In this document: in pieces, positions 57,004 through 63,228 of the stretch
How positions within the stretch are numbered: the stretch's first letter is position 1
Layout of the letters: each line of letters starts with the position of its first letter
Assembly: GCA_944345365.1 (NCBI GenBank)
Contig: CALVMJ010000001.1
Coordinates: 3,760 to 67,759, forward strand
DNA from: an uncultured Clostridia bacterium
Lineage (GTDB): Bacteria > Bacillota > Clostridia > Christensenellales > UBA1242
Length of the DNA: 64,000 nt
Reading direction: 5' to 3'
The notes under the pieces: generated by a model
Told to the model about the DNA's origin: nothing
What the model saw: the letters and a program-made list of their open reading frames with translations, nothing else
Databases searched by the model: none
Position numbers and translations under genes: made by a program

Positions 57004-58305
57004 ATGCGATATTTTAAAGGCAAGAGAGTGCTGGTTTACGGAATGGGAATCAGTGGACAATCTGCCTGTAAGCTTCTTCACTCTTATGATGCTTGCGTAA
57101 GTATATACGACGAAGATAAACGCTTTTCAAATCTTTTTTGTTTTGAAAACAACCCAATGGGAAAGGAATATGATTTGGTGGTTGTATCACCGGGTGTAAA
57201 AGTAATTGGAAATAAAATAATTAAACATTTTATAGACCAGAAAGTTTCGGTAATTTCCGAAATTGATCTTGGCTATTCCTTTTTAGAGGGAAAACTTGTG
57301 GCTATAACCGGAACAAACGGCAAAACTACCGTCACTAGCCTTTTGGGAGATATTTTCAAAAAGGACGGAAAAGAAACTTTTGTTTGTGGGAACATTGGGC
57401 TACCTCTTTCTGCAATTGCTTCAAGCACGACAAAAAAAAGCTTTACAGTTTGCGAGGTGAGTAATTTTCAACTGGAACTATCCAAAGTTTTTAATCCCGA
57501 CATTGCCTGCATCTTAAACTTGCAAGAAGATCACATCGATCGCCACGGAAATTTTGCTGAGTATGTTAGAGTCAAAAACAAAATCAGCCAAAATTTTTCA
57601 AAGGCAAATCTTTTGGTATATAACTTAGACGATGACAACTGTGGCCTTGTAGATTTGACTAAAAACACAAGTACTTTTTCAAAACAAGAGCAAAAAAGAG
57701 GAAGCTATGTAAAAGACGGAGAAATTTTTTTCAACAAAACAAAAATTATGCCGGTTAGCGATGTCCCTTTAATTGGAGATAAAAATTTGGAGAATGTGCT
57801 TGCTTGTGTAAATATTGCTATGCACTGCAAGGTAAAAATTAACAATTTAAAAGATGCCATAAAGGACTTTATTCCACCAGCTCACAGACTTGAATTTGTT
57901 GGAAAGTTTAATGGTGTGGAATTTTTTAACGACTCAAAATCCACAAATGTTGCGTGTGTTGAAATGGCAATTGAAAGTTTAAAAAGAAAGAATCTCATTC
58001 TTTTGCTTGGAGGACAAAACAAGGATTGCAACTTTGCACATATGTTCACAAAAGGATATGACATTAAAGAAGTGATTTGTTTTGGAAGTGCTGGGCAGTC
58101 AATTTTTATCACGGCAAAATCCCATGGATATAATGTGAAAAAATTTGACAAAATGGAAGATGCAGTGATTAATGTAATAAAAGAGGCAAAGCAAGACGAT
58201 TGTGTTTTGCTTTCACCGGGGTGTGCAAGCTTCGATGAATTTACATCTTATGTTGCAAGAGGTCAACTCTTTAAGGAAATTGTTTGTGAAAGTTTTAAAG
58301 AATAA
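57004..58305 (+). CDS. murD: UDP-MurNAc-L-Ala--D-Glu ligase
   Basis: ITGTNGKTT, EVSNFQLE, NDSKSTN, LSPGCASFD; ATG 57004. Confidence 0.95.
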   Translation: MRYFKGKRVLVYGMGISGQSACKLLHSYDACVSIYDEDKRFSNLFCFENNPMGKEYDLVVVSPGVKVIGNKIIKHFIDQKVSVISEIDLGYSFLEGKLVAITGTNGKTTVTSLLGDIFKKDGKETFVCGNIGLPLSAIASSTTKKSFTVCEVSNFQLELSKVFNPDIACILNLQEDHIDRHGNFAEYVRVKNKISQNFSKANLLVYNLDDDNCGLVDLTKNTSTFSKQEQKRGSYVKDGEIFFNKTKIMPVSDVPLIGDKNLENVLACVNIAMHCKVKINNLKDAIKDFIPPAHRLEFVGKFNGVEFFNDSKSTNVACVEMAIESLKRKNLILLLGGQNKDCNFAHMFTKGYDIKEVICFGSAGQSIFITAKSHGYNVKKFDKMEDAVINVIKEAKQDDCVLLSPGCASFDEFTSYVARGQLFKEIVCESFKE

Positions 58306-59404
58306 AAAAATCAAATTTGAAAAATCTTCTTTTATTGTTTGTTTGCTTGTAATTTTGCTTGTGGCTTTTGGTTGCATTATGGTTTACAGTGCAAGTATGT
58401 ATTCTGCTCAATACCATTTTGGAAACTCAAAGTTCTTTCTTTATAAGCAAATCTTAGGAGCAGTACTTGGGCTTGCTCTTATGATTTTTTTTGCTTTTTT
58501 TGACTATCATTCATTAAAAAAGTTTAGGTGGATTGCTTTAATCGTAACAACAATTTTACTTGTCTTGGTTTTTATCCCAGGAATAGGAGTGGAAAGTTAT
58601 GGAGCAAAAAGATGGGTGAGTATTTTAGGTTTTTCAATTCAACCATCAGAAGTTGCCAAATTTACCTTGGTTTTGTTCTGTGCAAGTTACCTTTCCGACA
58701 ATCACGAAAAAATAAAAAACTTTAAAACATTGCTCCCAGTGGTGTTCGTAGCAGGAGCTCTTTGCCTTTTAGTTATTTTAGAGCCAAGTATGAGTGTGAC
58801 GATGTGTTTGCTTTTGATAACATTTTTTATGCTTGTTGCAGGAGGAATAACAAAAAAACACACCATAATGTTTTCTATTCCAGCCGTTTTGGCTGTTCCA
58901 GCATTAATAATCGCAGAGCCTTACCGTCTAAAACGACTTTTTGCCTTCATAAATCCTTGGGCTTCTCCTCAGGGGGAAGGATTTCAACTTATCCAGTCGC
59001 TATACTCACTTGGCAATGGGGGGTGGTTTGGAGTTGGCCTTTTTGCATCCAGACAAAAATATCTGTTTTTGCCTTTTGCTGAATCTGATTTCATATTTTC
59101 TATAATAGGAGAGGAATTAGGGTTTGTGGGCGTGACAATGGTCATCTTGGCATTTTTGACGCTAATATATTTTCTCATTAAAATTGCTTTAAACGCCAAA
59201 GACAGATTTGGTGCTTTGCTTGCAAGTGGAGTCGCCTTTGTAATTGGAGTTCAAACGCTTCTAAATATAGCCGTTGTTACCGGCTCAATTCCACCAACAG
59301 GGTTGCCACTTCCGTTTATTTCAAGTGGTGGCACTTCCGTTATGATGTTTATGGCGGGGATTGGGGTGTGTTTGAATGTTGCAAGACAGAGTAAGAATCA
59401 ATAA
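58286..59404 (+). CDS. ftsW: SEDS peptidoglycan polymerase FtsW/SpoVE
   Basis: GAKRW, IQPSE.AK, FLPFAESDFIF, TG.PLPFIS.GG; GTG 58286 after AAGGA is the probable start. Confidence 0.93.
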   Translation: MKVLKNKKIKFEKSSFIVCLLVILLVAFGCIMVYSASMYSAQYHFGNSKFFLYKQILGAVLGLALMIFFAFFDYHSLKKFRWIALIVTTILLVLVFIPGIGVESYGAKRWVSILGFSIQPSEVAKFTLVLFCASYLSDNHEKIKNFKTLLPVVFVAGALCLLVILEPSMSVTMCLLLITFFMLVAGGITKKHTIMFSIPAVLAVPALIIAEPYRLKRLFAFINPWASPQGEGFQLIQSLYSLGNGGWFGVGLFASRQKYLFLPFAESDFIFSIIGEELGFVGVTMVILAFLTLIYFLIKIALNAKDRFGALLASGVAFVIGVQTLLNIAVVTGSIPPTGLPLPFISSGGTSVMMFMAGIGVCLNVARQSKNQ

Positions 59405-59418
59405 ATTTAAAATTTTTG

Positions 59419-59447
59419 TTGATTTACAATTTTTATTTTGATATACT
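59419..59447 (+). promoter_or_regulatory. sigma-A promoter of first cargo gene
   Basis: TTGATT, 17 bp, TATACT with TG extension. Confidence 0.7.
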
Positions 59448-59468
59448 TTAATTACAAAGGAGAAAATT

Positions 59469-60014
59469 ATGAGAAATTATTTTATAATACATGGGACATT
59501 CGGTCACAATAAAGAAAATTGGTTCCCTTGGCTTGAGAATAAATTAATTAAGAAAGGAGAAGTTTTTAATTTAAATTATCCCACTCCTGAAAATCAATCA
59601 TTCGAAAGTTGGTCAAAAGTTTTAGATAAATATAAAGATAAAATCACAAGCGAAACAGTATTTATTTGTCATAGTATTGGTTGTATCTTCTTGATTAAAT
59701 ATTGCATTTTTAATAAGATAAAGATAGATAAAGCTATTTTTGTTAGTGGTTGTAATAACTATTATTTTGATCCTAAATTTGATGAAATAAACAAAGATAT
59801 GTATACTGATAGAATTTCGGAATTTAAAAATTATTGTGACAATGTTATTTGTTTTTATTCAAAAGATGATCCTTATATAAAATTTAATCAACTGCAAATA
59901 TTTGCTCATTCTGTTTATGCTATACATAAAATTTATGAACATGCAGGACATTTTAATGAAAAGGCGGGCTATAAAAAGTTTGAAGATATTTTACCTTATA
60001 TTTTTAGCAAATAA
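59469..60014 (+). CDS. RBBP9/YdeN-family alpha/beta hydrolase
   Basis: IIHG.FG....NWFPWL, CHSIGC, SKDDPY, AGHFN. Confidence 0.88.
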   Translation: MRNYFIIHGTFGHNKENWFPWLENKLIKKGEVFNLNYPTPENQSFESWSKVLDKYKDKITSETVFICHSIGCIFLIKYCIFNKIKIDKAIFVSGCNNYYFDPKFDEINKDMYTDRISEFKNYCDNVICFYSKDDPYIKFNQLQIFAHSVYAIHKIYEHAGHFNEKAGYKKFEDILPYIFSK

Positions 60015-60037
60015 AAAAGTATTTAGTGCATTAACTC

Positions 60038-60175
60038 GTGGTAACGGGTAGCATCCCGCCAACAGGTCTGCCACTTCCCTTTATTTCAAGTGATGGAACT
60101 TCCGTTATGATGTTTATGGCTGGGATTGGCGTGTGTTTGAATGTGCTTTGGCAGAGTAATAAGAATAATATTTAA
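60038..60175 (+). pseudogene. orphan copy of ftsW 3' end (in frame, no start codon)
   Basis: Reads VVTGSIPPTGLPLPFISSDGTSVMMFMAGIGVCLNVLWQSNKNNI*; 35 of 36 residues match FtsW VVTG...CLNV. Confidence 0.95.
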
Positions 60176-60279
60176 TAAAAGGTAAAAGTACACAAATTGT
60201 TTTTAAATTATATGCTTTTTCTTAATTGCTGTGATATATTAAAAAGCGATGGATATTATTAATTGGCGTTGGGGGATTT

Positions 60280-60924
60280 ATGAATAAACAAATGTTGGAA
60301 ATATTAAAAAATTGCAAATGTTTTATATTTGATTTTGACGGGACTTTGATAGATTCGGAGCCTTATCATATGAAGGCTCATAACATGGTGATGTCTTCCA
60401 TTTTGAAGAAAGAAATTCATTTAAATAACATTAGTTTTCAAAAATATTTAGGAAAAAACGACGAAGAGATTTATAATCTGTTTAAGGAAGAGAATGGTGT
60501 GGATTTTGATATAAAAGATGCTGTGCTCAAAAAACAAATTGTGGCCCGAGATTTGTTGCTAGATAATAAAGTTGAGATTTTTGATTATTTTTTTGAGGTT
60601 GAAAAGTTGAAGAACAAGCAAAAAAAATTTTATATATTATCCAATCAATGCAAAATGATATTAGAAGATGTTTTAAAATCTAAAAAAATTCTTAATAAAT
60701 TTCAAAGAATATTTTGCTTGCCAGAAATGAAAATATTGAAAAAATATTTTCTTGAAAATTTTTCAAAATATATTAAAGATGCTGACTTTTGTGATGTTGT
60801 ATTATTTGAGGACTCGGCATCGACCATTGATGTCGCTCATAAGTTAGGAATGAAAACAATAGGAATTGAAACAAAAATGAATGAGGATAAAATTAAAAAT
60901 TCAGACTATTTAATAAAGATTTGA
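60280..60924 (+). CDS. HAD-superfamily phosphatase (beta-PGM-like)
   Basis: FDFDGTLIDSE motif I, LSN motif II, FEDS motif IV. Confidence 0.88.
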   Translation: MNKQMLEILKNCKCFIFDFDGTLIDSEPYHMKAHNMVMSSILKKEIHLNNISFQKYLGKNDEEIYNLFKEENGVDFDIKDAVLKKQIVARDLLLDNKVEIFDYFFEVEKLKNKQKKFYILSNQCKMILEDVLKSKKILNKFQRIFCLPEMKILKKYFLENFSKYIKDADFCDVVLFEDSASTIDVAHKLGMKTIGIETKMNEDKIKNSDYLIKI

Positions 60925-60967
60925 AATTTATTGAGAGAAATTTTACTAAATTATAGTGTAATAATTT

Positions 60968-61074
60968 GCTGTAACCGTCTCTATTGCACAAAAGTTTGTT
61001 ACTTCCATTCTTATTAAGTGGCAGAACTTCCTTTATGATGTTTATGGCTGGGATTGGCGTGTGTTTGAATGTTG
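60968..61074 (+). pseudogene. second, decayed orphan copy of ftsW 3' end
   Basis: GCTGTAACCGTCTCTATT aligns to GTTGTTACCGGCTCAATT; ~2-nt deletion; 61033-61072 identical to 60105-60144. Confidence 0.9.
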
Positions 61075-61093
61075 TTAAGGGGAAATTAGGGTA

Positions 61094-61122
61094 TTGACTC
61101 TTGTAATTTTCTGTGTTATTAT
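61094..61122 (+). promoter_or_regulatory. sigma-A promoter of HD gene
   Basis: TTGACT, 17 bp, TATTAT with TG extension; GAGGAG RBS. Confidence 0.75.
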
Positions 61123-61143: not shown

Positions 61144-61794
61144 ATGAAAGAAAAAAATGTTATTGAGTTTTATGTGCTTTGCAATAAATTAAAAGATGTT
61201 GTTAGGACAGGTTGGAAAAATTGGGGAGTTAACCGATTTAGAGTTGAAAGCATAGCAGAGCATATTTATGGGGCGCAAATGCTTGCTATTGGTATGTGGT
61301 CAGAGTTTAAATATGATATTGATATAGCGAAAGTTTTGACCATGCTTGCTGTGCACGAAGTTGAAGAAATTGTTATAGGGGACTTGACACAATGGCAAAT
61401 AACTAAAGATGAAAAATTAATTAAAGGTAAAGAAGCCGTAAGGAAGGTTTTTTCTAAATTAGGGAATGCTAAGAAATTTGAAGATTTGATTGATGAATTT
61501 AATGCAAAACAAACGAAAGAAGCTAAATTTGCCTATTTCTGCGATAAATTAGAATGTGATCTACAAAGTAAGATCTATGATGAAGAAGGTTGTGTTGATT
61601 TAAACAATCAAGAAAACAATAATTCGGCTAAGGATAAAGATGTTAAAGAAATGTTAGAAAATGGTTATTCTTTTTCTAAGATGTGGCAAACTTTTGGACT
61701 TAAAAAGTATAATTATGATGATAATTTTGCAAATGTTTCAAAATATGCTATGGGAGTTGATATTTTAAGAGAATCCAAAGATAAACAAAAATAG
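61144..61794 (+). CDS. HD-domain hydrolase (YfbR/HDDC2-like 5'-deoxynucleotidase family)
   Basis: LKD.VRTGW, ESIAEH, HE..E...GD, DKLE. Confidence 0.82.
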   Translation: MKEKNVIEFYVLCNKLKDVVRTGWKNWGVNRFRVESIAEHIYGAQMLAIGMWSEFKYDIDIAKVLTMLAVHEVEEIVIGDLTQWQITKDEKLIKGKEAVRKVFSKLGNAKKFEDLIDEFNAKQTKEAKFAYFCDKLECDLQSKIYDEEGCVDLNNQENNNSAKDKDVKEMLENGYSFSKMWQTFGLKKYNYDDNFANVSKYAMGVDILRESKDKQK

Positions 61795-61872
61795 CTTTAA
61801 GATCAATTAAGAAATGTGATCAAAGCTATGTGCTTACAATACTAAAAATTGATAGTAGAATCTAATAAATAG

Positions 61873-61909
61873 AAGGCGCTAGAAGTTAGACTTTTTAGCG
61901 CTTTTTTTT
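61873..61909 (+). terminator. intrinsic terminator
   Basis: GCGCTAGAAG / CTTTTTAGCGC stem followed by T8. Confidence 0.7.
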
Positions 61910-61974
61910 GTGTCGAGATTTTGTTTTTTTGCATAAAATGTTAAAGTAGGGATTTGTTTTTATGCGGAGGAAAA

Positions 61975-63228
61975 ATGTCTAAGTTTGTGATTAACGGGGG
62001 TAATAAATTGGTCGGAGAAATTGATATTTCTTGTGCCAAAAACTCACTTTTAACTATTCTTGCAGGGTGTATTTTGTCAGAAGGAGAAATTGTCCTTCAT
62101 AAATATCCCAGCTATACCGACACGGAATGTATGTGCAACATCTTAAAGCATCTTGGAGCAAAAATTAAAAAGGAAGGAGAGGTTTTGGTCGTTGACTCCT
62201 CCTCTTTAAATTCTTTTGACATTCCAACCGAACTTGCTTGCCTTGTTCGATCTTCTATCTTTGCCCTTGGTGCAATCATAGGAAAGTTCAAAAAGGCAAA
62301 AGTGGCTTATCCCGGTGGGTGTGAAATTGGTGCAAGACCTATTGACATTCATCTTTCTGGGCTAAGGCAACTGGGAGTTAAAATTACTGAAAGACATGGA
62401 TACATATATTGTGATGGAAAAGATATGCACAGCGCCACGATTATGCTTGATTTTCCAAGTGTAGGAGCAACCGAAAACTTAATAATGGCAAGTGTGTTGA
62501 CTAAAGGTGAAACAGTTATTTATAACTGTGCAAAAGAGCCGGAGATTGTTGATTTGCAGGAGTTTTTAAATTTGTTAGGTGCAAAAATATCCGGAGCAGG
62601 CACTGAAAAAATTGTCATAAATGGAGTGGCTAAACTTGGAGGGGGAGAATTTACTCCAATAAGAGACAGAATTGTTGCGGGAACATACATGATTGCATGT
62701 GCAATGTGTGGTGGGGATATTTCTTTAAATGGGGCTAATCCCGAGCATCTTCAAAGCGTTATAACCAAATTAAATAAAACTGCTTGTCAAATTGAAGCTA
62801 GTTGTGATAAAATTAGGGTGAAATCTGATGGAAAGCCTTTAAGCTTGAAAAAAATTGAAACTTCTGTTTATCCAGGTATTCCAACCGACCTTCAAGCACA
62901 ACTTTTGGCACTTCAATGTGTGAGCAATGGTTCATGTATGATAATCGAAAACCTTTTTGAATCGAGATTTAAGCATGTGCCTGAATTAATTAAAATGGGA
63001 GCAGACATCCATCTTAGAGATAGAGTTGCCTTTGTCAGAGGTGTTCCAAAACTATTTGGAGCAGAGGTCTTTGGAATGGATTTGAGAGGTACGGCGAGTT
63101 TGATTCTTGCAGGACTTTGTGCCGAGGGATATAGCGTTGTCAATAACGCAAGGCATATTGACAGGGGGTATAATAGGATTGAAAGAGAACTTTCTAGTTT
63201 AGGGGCAGATATAAAAAGGGTGGATTGA
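61975..63228 (+). CDS. murA: UDP-GlcNAc 1-carboxyvinyltransferase
   Basis: AKNS, PGGCEIGARPIDIH, PSVGATEN, DLRG, HIDRGY; ATG 61975 after GGAGG. Confidence 0.95.
   Translation: MSKFVINGGNKLVGEIDISCAKNSLLTILAGCILSEGEIVLHKYPSYTDTECMCNILKHLGAKIKKEGEVLVVDSSSLNSFDIPTELACLVRSSIFALGAIIGKFKKAKVAYPGGCEIGARPIDIHLSGLRQLGVKITERHGYIYCDGKDMHSATIMLDFPSVGATENLIMASVLTKGETVIYNCAKEPEIVDLQEFLNLLGAKISGAGTEKIVINGVAKLGGGEFTPIRDRIVAGTYMIACAMCGGDISLNGANPEHLQSVITKLNKTACQIEASCDKIRVKSDGKPLSLKKIETSVYPGIPTDLQAQLLALQCVSNGSCMIIENLFESRFKHVPELIKMGADIHLRDRVAFVRGVPKLFGAEVFGMDLRGTASLILAGLCAEGYSVVNNARHIDRGYNRIERELSSLGADIKRVD

Follow-up and report, generated by a model that had tools for sequence, protein, structure and literature searches.

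The systems closest to the ftsW cassette arrays reported here are integrons (IntI/attI/attC arrays, and CALINs), the SCC elements of staphylococci, tycheposons and other tRNA-targeting islands, IMEX together with the dif modules of Acinetobacter, and the minimal mobile elements of Neisseria. In their logic the ftsW cassettes are closest to integrons and also close to SCC elements and tycheposons, yet each of these, and IMEX as well, is defined by features that the ftsW cassettes lack. To our knowledge, integrons are essentially unknown in Clostridia or Firmicutes-type bacteria, and we found no description in the literature of ftsW cassette arrays or of the short motif, hereafter the arm, that ends each cassette.

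As in integrons, the cassettes are short, mostly hold a single co-oriented ORF and no recombinase, alternate with a recombination-type repeat unit of about 150 bp, occupy one fixed chromosomal acceptor, and bring in diverse cargo (GNATs, hydrolases, and others). attC sites are imperfect palindromes that fold as single strands (R''-L''...L'-R'), whereas no attC-like fold was found in arm plus tail of the ftsW repeat (the consensus of 16 units gives −1.6 kcal/mol and 8 pairs, with no compensatory change); the repeat consists instead of the spare 3' end of an essential gene, hereafter the tail, and an arm of 24-28 nt. Furthermore, no intI was found adjacent to an array or in the genome, the cassettes carry promoter-like sites of their own, and the host belongs to the Clostridia.

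SCC elements insert into the 3' end of a conserved gene (rlmH/orfX) and regenerate it, they accrete in tandem, and members without a recombinase, including tandem ccr-less pseudo-SCC, are mobilised in trans. The ftsW cassettes also display 3'-end insertion with regeneration and flanking direct repeats. However, SCC relies on Ccr large serine recombinases and on repeats of about 15-18 bp, whereas in ftsW about 126 nt are regenerated, each unit of about 0.8 kb holds a single gene, several near-complete array-bearing genomes are devoid of any serine recombinase, and none adjoins an array. Tycheposons (bioRxiv 10.1101/2020.12.28.424599) resemble the ftsW arrays in residing in streamlined genomes, in holding tandem cargo between partial 3' copies of the target, and in having decayed older copies further downstream, but they have their own tyrosine recombinases and mostly tRNA targets, whereas the ftsW cassettes target a SEDS motif within a protein-coding gene, and none was found to bring an integrase with it.

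IMEX and the dif modules (PMC6449649, PMC5357621) likewise have no recombinase of their own, form tandem arrays of small modules and may use the housekeeping Xer of the host. They integrate at dif or at dif-mimicking pdif sites, whereas the ftsW site is far from the GC-skew switch and unlike the candidate dif beside the xerS-like gene. In the minimal mobile elements (PMC3787668), alternative small cargos without mobility genes are exchanged by homologous recombination between two conserved genes. Such elements have no conserved end motif and no flank duplication, whereas a conserved arm stands at 63 of 63 junctions in the ftsW arrays; one replacement of the homologous-recombination type is nevertheless seen among them.

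The array in question lies in the window, i.e., the whole stretch of 64,000 nucleotides that was analysed, within the dcw cluster of a 0.91-Mb, 98%-complete MAG of 33% GC from chicken gut. The genome carrying the window is labelled G000; other G labels denote related genomes and L labels denote loci. The gene order is murD, ftsW, cargo 1, a tail copy, cargo 2, a decayed tail, cargo 3, a terminator, murA, and ftsQ, and the features are as follows.

58286..59404, + strand: resident ftsW, 372 aa, FTSW_RODA_SPOVE (ORF list; gene call and Pfam match in identical contigs)
59273..59284, + strand: attL-type site GTT GTT / ACC GGC (VVTG), with the putative join between 59278 and 59279
59279..60043, + strand: cassette 1, 765 bp, with the functional ftsW tail, a promoter-like site, cargo 1 and arm 1
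59419-59447: promoter-like site of cassette 1 (promoter scan)
59469-60014, + strand: cargo 1, PF06821 Ser_hydrolase (Pfam)
60020..60043, + strand: arm 1, TATT TAGTGCATTAACTC GTGGTA, diverged from the family signature TTTATAGTGCAATAACT-NN-TGTTA
60044..60973, + strand: cassette 2, 930 bp, with displaced tail 1, cargo 2 and arm 2
60044-60175, + strand: displaced tail 1, frame intact
60280-60924, + strand: cargo 2, HAD_2 hydrolase (Pfam)
60950..60973, + strand: arm 2, AATTA TAGTGTAATAATTT GCTGTA; its counterpart in G097 is TTTATAGTGTAACAACTTGTTGTG
60974..61097, + strand: displaced tail 2, an ftsW 3' copy, decayed and frameshifted
61144..61794, + strand: cargo 3, HD_3 / YfbR-like hydrolase, with a promoter-like site at 61094-61122
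61871..61916, + strand: intrinsic terminator, closing the array before murA (61976-63228)

The last 126 nt of the resident ftsW (59279-59404) are thus supplied by cassette 1. Homologues of cargo 3 in G046 are first-position cassettes followed by arm and tail. With nhmmer, no arm or tail remnant was detectable after cargo 3 (61795-61975); this oldest junction was apparently lost, or the terminator region has overwritten it.

Two 14-nt motifs pointed out in the preliminary description are present as it had them, TAGTGCATTAACTC at 60024-60037 and TAGTGTAATAATTT at 60954-60967. The two share 10 of 14 bases, with C/T at three of the four mismatches, and have the same offset, each ending 1 nt before an ftsW-homologous copy (first bases 60038 and 60968), whereas the resident ftsW reads TTCTAAATATAGCC at the equivalent place, which is unrelated to the motif. 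By itself the pair is weak evidence and suggestive only (P about 0.004-0.007): the binomial probability under local composition is 0.007, and the empirical one, from random AT-rich 14-mer pairs of the G000 genome, is 0.0036. The decisive evidence comes from a 16-nt weight matrix built from 59 arms of other genomes, with G000 left out. On this matrix arm 1 of G000 scores 12.2 bits, equalled by only 8 of 1,827,710 genome positions, and arm 2 scores 5.2 bits, a value reached by 115 of 1.83 million genome positions, which gives P of about 4e-6 and 6e-5, respectively; the resident ftsW sequence scores −44 bits. Thus, comparable matches are not common in the AT-rich DNA of this genome, a point on which the original proposal could have failed. 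Furthermore, an nhmmer profile of arm plus tail detected exactly the three units of the array in the whole G000 genome and nothing else.

The second such point also came out in its favour: the motif is present at the equivalent junctions in dozens of other genomes. Across 34 records of related gut Clostridia, 63 distinct arm-type junctions were collected. Each of them immediately precedes an ftsW tail fragment, and their consensus is (AAA)TTTATA[A/G]T[A/G]CAATAACT-NN-TGTTA-A[C/G]NGG. The CAATAACT and TGTTA positions are 87-100% invariant across the junctions, the NN is mostly GA or CG, and upstream of about −6 there is no conservation save a frequent terminator hairpin. The 14-base motif corresponds to the left two-thirds of an arm of roughly 24-28 nt. 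Two arm subtypes, ATAATAC and ATAGTGC, can be distinguished, and both G000 motifs are diverged members of the latter. Written as a string, the arm motif of the ftsW arrays is TAGTGCAATAACT. When 185,579 species genomes were scanned for an exact 22-mer, 29 stretches matched, and an ftsW tail follows in 24 of them; the carriers come from animal guts and bear names including Candidatus Caccovivens, Candidatus Onthoplasma and 'Clostridia bacterium'. The 22-nt signature is thus a specific probe (24/29 true sites), usable for cataloguing cassettes and for seeking the missing enzyme.

With the G000 tail as query, about 20 of 149 species of the genus proved to have displaced ftsW tails downstream of the gene itself, and in G000 and these species the displaced fragments start at the identical codon, the first Val of VVTG. 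Two alleles of cargo 1 share only ~38% amino acid identity, yet both keep the non-coding arm (TATTTAGTGC[A/G][T/A]TAACT), which argues for selection on the arm. The suggestion that the motif is an element-side arm is supported, the motif being a conserved end of the inserted units that is missing from the resident ftsW.

The limits of the unit can be placed by means of a cassette with GNAT-like cargo (795/798 nt) that occurs in two contexts, directly after the ftsW body (L110) and after the arm of another cassette (L120). Over the 30 nt preceding the unit the two loci are 33% identical. Identity rises to 90% in the tail, which includes a rare GCI version of the GSI codons, and to 98.7% through cargo, terminator and arm to ..TGTTA, and it falls to 65% immediately after. 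These steps indicate that ACNGG, at the Thr codon, is the start of the unit and ..CAATAACT-NN-TGTTA its end. In VVTG, the join would accordingly fall after the second Val codon and before that of Thr (V19 and T20), 6 nt to the right of the boundary first proposed; the conserved arm extends 6 nt further (..AACT-NN-TGTTA). Although mapped from this one clean cassette pair, the position is supported by base statistics at resident sites and arms. All 42 of 42 resident sites read GTNGTN followed by AC, whereas arm junctions have TGTTA followed by AC (29), AG (28), AT (5) or AA (1), so the six bases ..TGTTA are part of the element and never enter the working gene. This resolves why most displaced tails seem to begin ATG TTA A.., which is never found in a working ftsW.

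In the window, the joins fall at 59278/59279, 60043/60044 and 60973/60974. With the join so placed, the mobile unit is a spare ftsW tail, a promoter, one gene, a terminator and an arm; more fully, a cassette comprises ACNGG... with the spare last ~42 ftsW codons, its own promoter/RBS, one cargo gene, often a terminator, and the arm. Arrays hold 1-9 units at a median spacing of 807 bp (IQR 643-943), and of 79 intervals, 78 have their largest ORF in the same orientation as ftsW.

Several details of the site as first sketched have to be revised. The three putative 7-bp overlaps (GCCGTTG, CTCGTGG, TTTGCTG) lie on the non-shared side of the mapped join, which is why they differ, and no special explanation such as drift is needed. 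The dyad TAAC-TCGTT-GTTA predicted for a circle does exist; it carries no evidential weight, however, because a 4-bp dyad spans the joint in 30% of random genome joins. Across the mapped join itself there is no dyad, and the only one found, TAAC-TNNT-GTTA, is wholly inside the arm. A simple tyrosine-recombinase site of the Cre/Flp/Xer type would have two inverted arms around a 6-8 bp overlap; the join has no such arms beside it and no conserved fold. No feature points to a tyrosine recombinase, the enzyme class originally invoked, and the junction is unlike the best candidate dif of the XerS-like enzyme of the host.

The direction of growth of the array is visible from related genomes. In G097 and G081, ftsW is followed by an orthologue of cargo 2 (92-95% aa identity; 92.5% in G097) and then by arm and tail. 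Cassette 2 of G000 is orthologous to the first cassette of G097. The resident tail of G097, whose end equals that of copy 1, is the orthologue of G000 copy 1, and orthology continues into the DNA that follows each of them. In both genomes, the ftsW body runs into the orthologous tail without the 765-bp block of cassette 1. Thus, G000 has that arrangement plus cassette 1, inserted exactly at VVTG. Cargo-1 and cargo-3 homologues in other species also occupy the first position, each followed by arm and tail. By this comparison the newest cassette adjoins ftsW, and older tails decay further downstream. The anatomy of the arrays, the constant position of the junctions, the conservation of the arm, the polarity of insertion and the sharp unit boundaries can all be read directly from these genomes. 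Chicken-gut contigs of the same species indicate strains with fewer or different cassettes, and hence turnover within the species.

No recombinase ORF lies in or beside any array examined, and the PF00589 matches in G000 and 19 array-bearing genomes are all on other contigs or far from the arrays. G000 encodes one intact tyrosine recombinase (XerS-like, below the curated cut-off) and one tyrosine-recombinase fragment. The XerS-like gene is a single-copy core gene in 149 of 154 species, and G091 (100% complete) and G176 have arrays with the XerS-like enzyme only and no serine recombinase; PF00239 (serine recombinase) had no match in the array-bearing G091, G097, G015, G106, G176 and G178. A large serine recombinase on contig C19 of G000 was considered and rejected, as it is on an unrelated 7-kb mobile fragment and its family is missing from several array-bearing genomes. 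Arm plus tail had no match in 50,697 phage and 72,556 plasmid records, the motif had none in IMG/VR, so these collections revealed no helper element; metagenomes yielded arm plus tail in only 4 short contigs. In public runs, searched as assembled Logan contigs, which drop rare forms, no circle or excision joint at the arm was seen.

GC skew is uniformly positive across the window; it switches on a different contig, next to the xerS-like gene, and the distance of the array and ftsW from the switch argues against dif-type integration. At the switch, about 40 nt after the single xerS-like gene, stands a candidate dif, the 10+8+10 palindrome AATTGTGAAG-GAGAATTG-CTTCACATTA (C2:121860-121910, outside the window), which is unique in G000. 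This candidate is conserved beside xer, on either side, in at least 10 of 30 genus members. The arm junction does not seem to mimic this dif, which is itself only predicted: the candidate has no similarity to any array sequence, and a matrix of it had no match in any array. The likeness of the half-site TGTTAAG at the junction to TGTGAAG in the predicted-dif consensus was noted by eye, is unscored, and is judged to be at chance level.

Another palindrome, AACACAATATATTGTATT, about 85 nt upstream of the xerS-like gene and alike to the junction at 17 of 25 positions by eye, was first taken for dif. NrdR operators are 16-bp palindromes (ACACwAtATaTwGTGT), usually in two boxes 31-32 bp apart. Palindromes of the AACACAATATATTGTATT type are NrdR boxes rather than dif, because they are paired 31 nt apart upstream of nrdD, are tandem at xer elsewhere, and nrdR is present. 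Such NrdR-type boxes stand upstream of the xerS-like gene (C2:120719-120740) and of nrdDG (C6:50060-50112), both outside the window, and at the xerS-like gene they are in tandem, 31 nt apart, in several related genomes. In this genus, the NrdR regulon seems to include the dimer-resolution recombinase.

Since the motif lies within a signature that ends every cassette, it is most likely the recombination site of a hitherto undescribed gene-capture system of uncultured gut Clostridia, one without an integrase of its own. We consider it about 60% probable that the arm serves integrase-less single-gene cassettes of ~0.8 kb as a site of site-specific recombination by an enzyme acting in trans; about a third of this goes to the XerS-like enzyme and the remainder to an unknown or transient helper. 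A cassette that had circularised would carry an arm-tail site, and for cassette 1 the predicted circle joint has the end of arm 1, ..CATTAACTCGTGGTA, joined to ACCGGCTCAATTCC. Such a circle would recombine with ftsW between the second Val and Thr codons of the conserved VVTG(S)IPPTG, whereupon the incoming tail would become the working end of FtsW and the old tail would be pushed downstream with the arm now before it. Repeated insertion, or insertion at an existing arm-tail site, would build stacks, giving arrays of up to 9. The recombinase would act in trans, and the single housekeeping XerS-like enzyme is the only candidate common to all array-bearing genomes checked. Homologous exchange between the 130-bp tails also swaps and reshuffles cassettes. 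From these comparative data we infer the circular intermediate, catalysis by a site-specific enzyme, and the identity of that enzyme.

If a site-specific enzyme does use the arm, the arrays would be a gene-capture platform in Firmicutes-type bacteria with genomes of only about 0.9 Mb, without a dedicated integrase adjacent, and the C-terminus of an essential division protein would be routinely swapped by mobile DNA. With the arm and the mapped join, spare ftsW ends become a testable recombination site of defined sequence, polarity and unit structure. A more far-reaching interpretation, which we regard as tentative and rather doubtful, is that gut Clostridia possess a second, independent kind of integron, in which the most conserved coding motif of the SEDS protein FtsW is the permanent acceptor, the arm with the spare FtsW C-terminus is the analogue of attC, and capture is carried out either by the single housekeeping XerS-like enzyme, working at a place other than dif, or by a class of enzyme that is not so far associated with site-specific integration. 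In that case every capture would rewrite the C-terminus of the essential cell-division protein FtsW.

Against a recombinase site stands, as an unlikely but still weighty alternative, homologous recombination alone in the style of minimal mobile elements, in which DNA taken up is exchanged via the ftsW body and the 130-bp tails and the arm is an insulator, an expression signal or an extra stretch of perfectly matched homology. Such exchange evidently takes place. In L138 (3339-3960) and L135, from other samples of the same species, the flanks are 98.5% identical to the window and cargo 1 is replaced by the allele with ~38% amino acid identity; the divergence extends from about 59257 to about 60110, and its break-points inside the tails are a signature of homologous, not site-specific, recombination. 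Displaced tails often resemble the resident tail of their own genome (e.g., G050 and G062), which fits gene conversion, an open frame is kept in 35 of 47 displaced tails, and a dedicated recombinase was not found. Thus, the tails also serve as portable homology, in a process distinct from the initial joining of gene to arm. Homologous recombination, however, shuffles cassettes that already exist; it cannot account for dozens of unrelated genes ending in the same 24-28-nt arm at the same ftsW codon, and it leaves unexplained both the abrupt drop from 98.7% to 65% identity exactly after TGTTA and the near-invariant CAATAACT..TGTTA beside unconserved DNA.

The arm could also be a transcription signal for driving or regulating the cassette after it, made up of a −10 box (TATAAT/TATAGT) and an overlapping operator of the NrdR type. 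The arm does start with TATAAT or TATAGT, NrdR is encoded in the genome, one NrdR-type box agrees with the CG-class junction consensus at 18 of 25 positions in a by-eye comparison, and with a matrix of the NrdR-type box upstream of xerS the junctions make up 13 of 40 matches of at least 9 bits in 270 kb. Their scores are 11.5-14.3 bits and they are single, however, versus 16-24 bits for true boxes, and 11.5 bits is ordinary in this genome, where 93 sites reach at least 9 bits and more than 25 reach at least 11.9 bits. The commonest arm class (..AACTGATGTTAA) is without the conserved G of the NrdR half-site, the second subtype (ATAGTGC) is without the ACAC half-site, no −35 box or TG extension is conserved, and a promoter has no need of the invariant CAATAACT..TGTTA. 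Moreover, the promoter-like sites of G000 come after each tail and not at the arms. We therefore consider a transcription signal quite improbable. Least credible of all is a chance likeness between two AT-rich intergenic stretches of the window, for which the modest P value of the pair alone would leave room; the 22-mer scan, the matrix, and the junction set, in which the motif always takes the same offset, already refute it. Use of the arm as a site-specific recombination site remains the preferred reading.

A few further observations concern the arrays of other samples and genomes. In other gut samples of the same species, positions 59282-59384 of the window are joined to the cargo-3 leader at 61076-61105 (run X20), position 59386 is joined to 61876 (run X4), and 60075-60192 is preceded by a different 1130-nt unit upstream of copy 1 (run X5). 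Two ftsW-tail units are found at 6427-7205 of L056 (contig C12 of G020), a contig without ftsW, where the first unit is 5'-truncated and fused to unrelated DNA without an arm; these may represent a secondary site, a rearrangement or a second strain. An Rfam search of the arrays, including a 110-nt insert in the tails, gave no match. This MITE-like element of ~110 nt lies inside many displaced ftsW tails, e.g., at about 17570-17690 of L057 (reverse strand; the G042 array), and also in L124, L116, L117, L106, L111 and L115, at varied positions and in both orientations. It starts with (G)CGTCAAAAC[A/T]CTCGCTT, ends with GCTCGGTTTTTCCTTxCCCC-hairpin-GGGGxCCCCAGAA, and forms two hairpins (fold z = −2.4).
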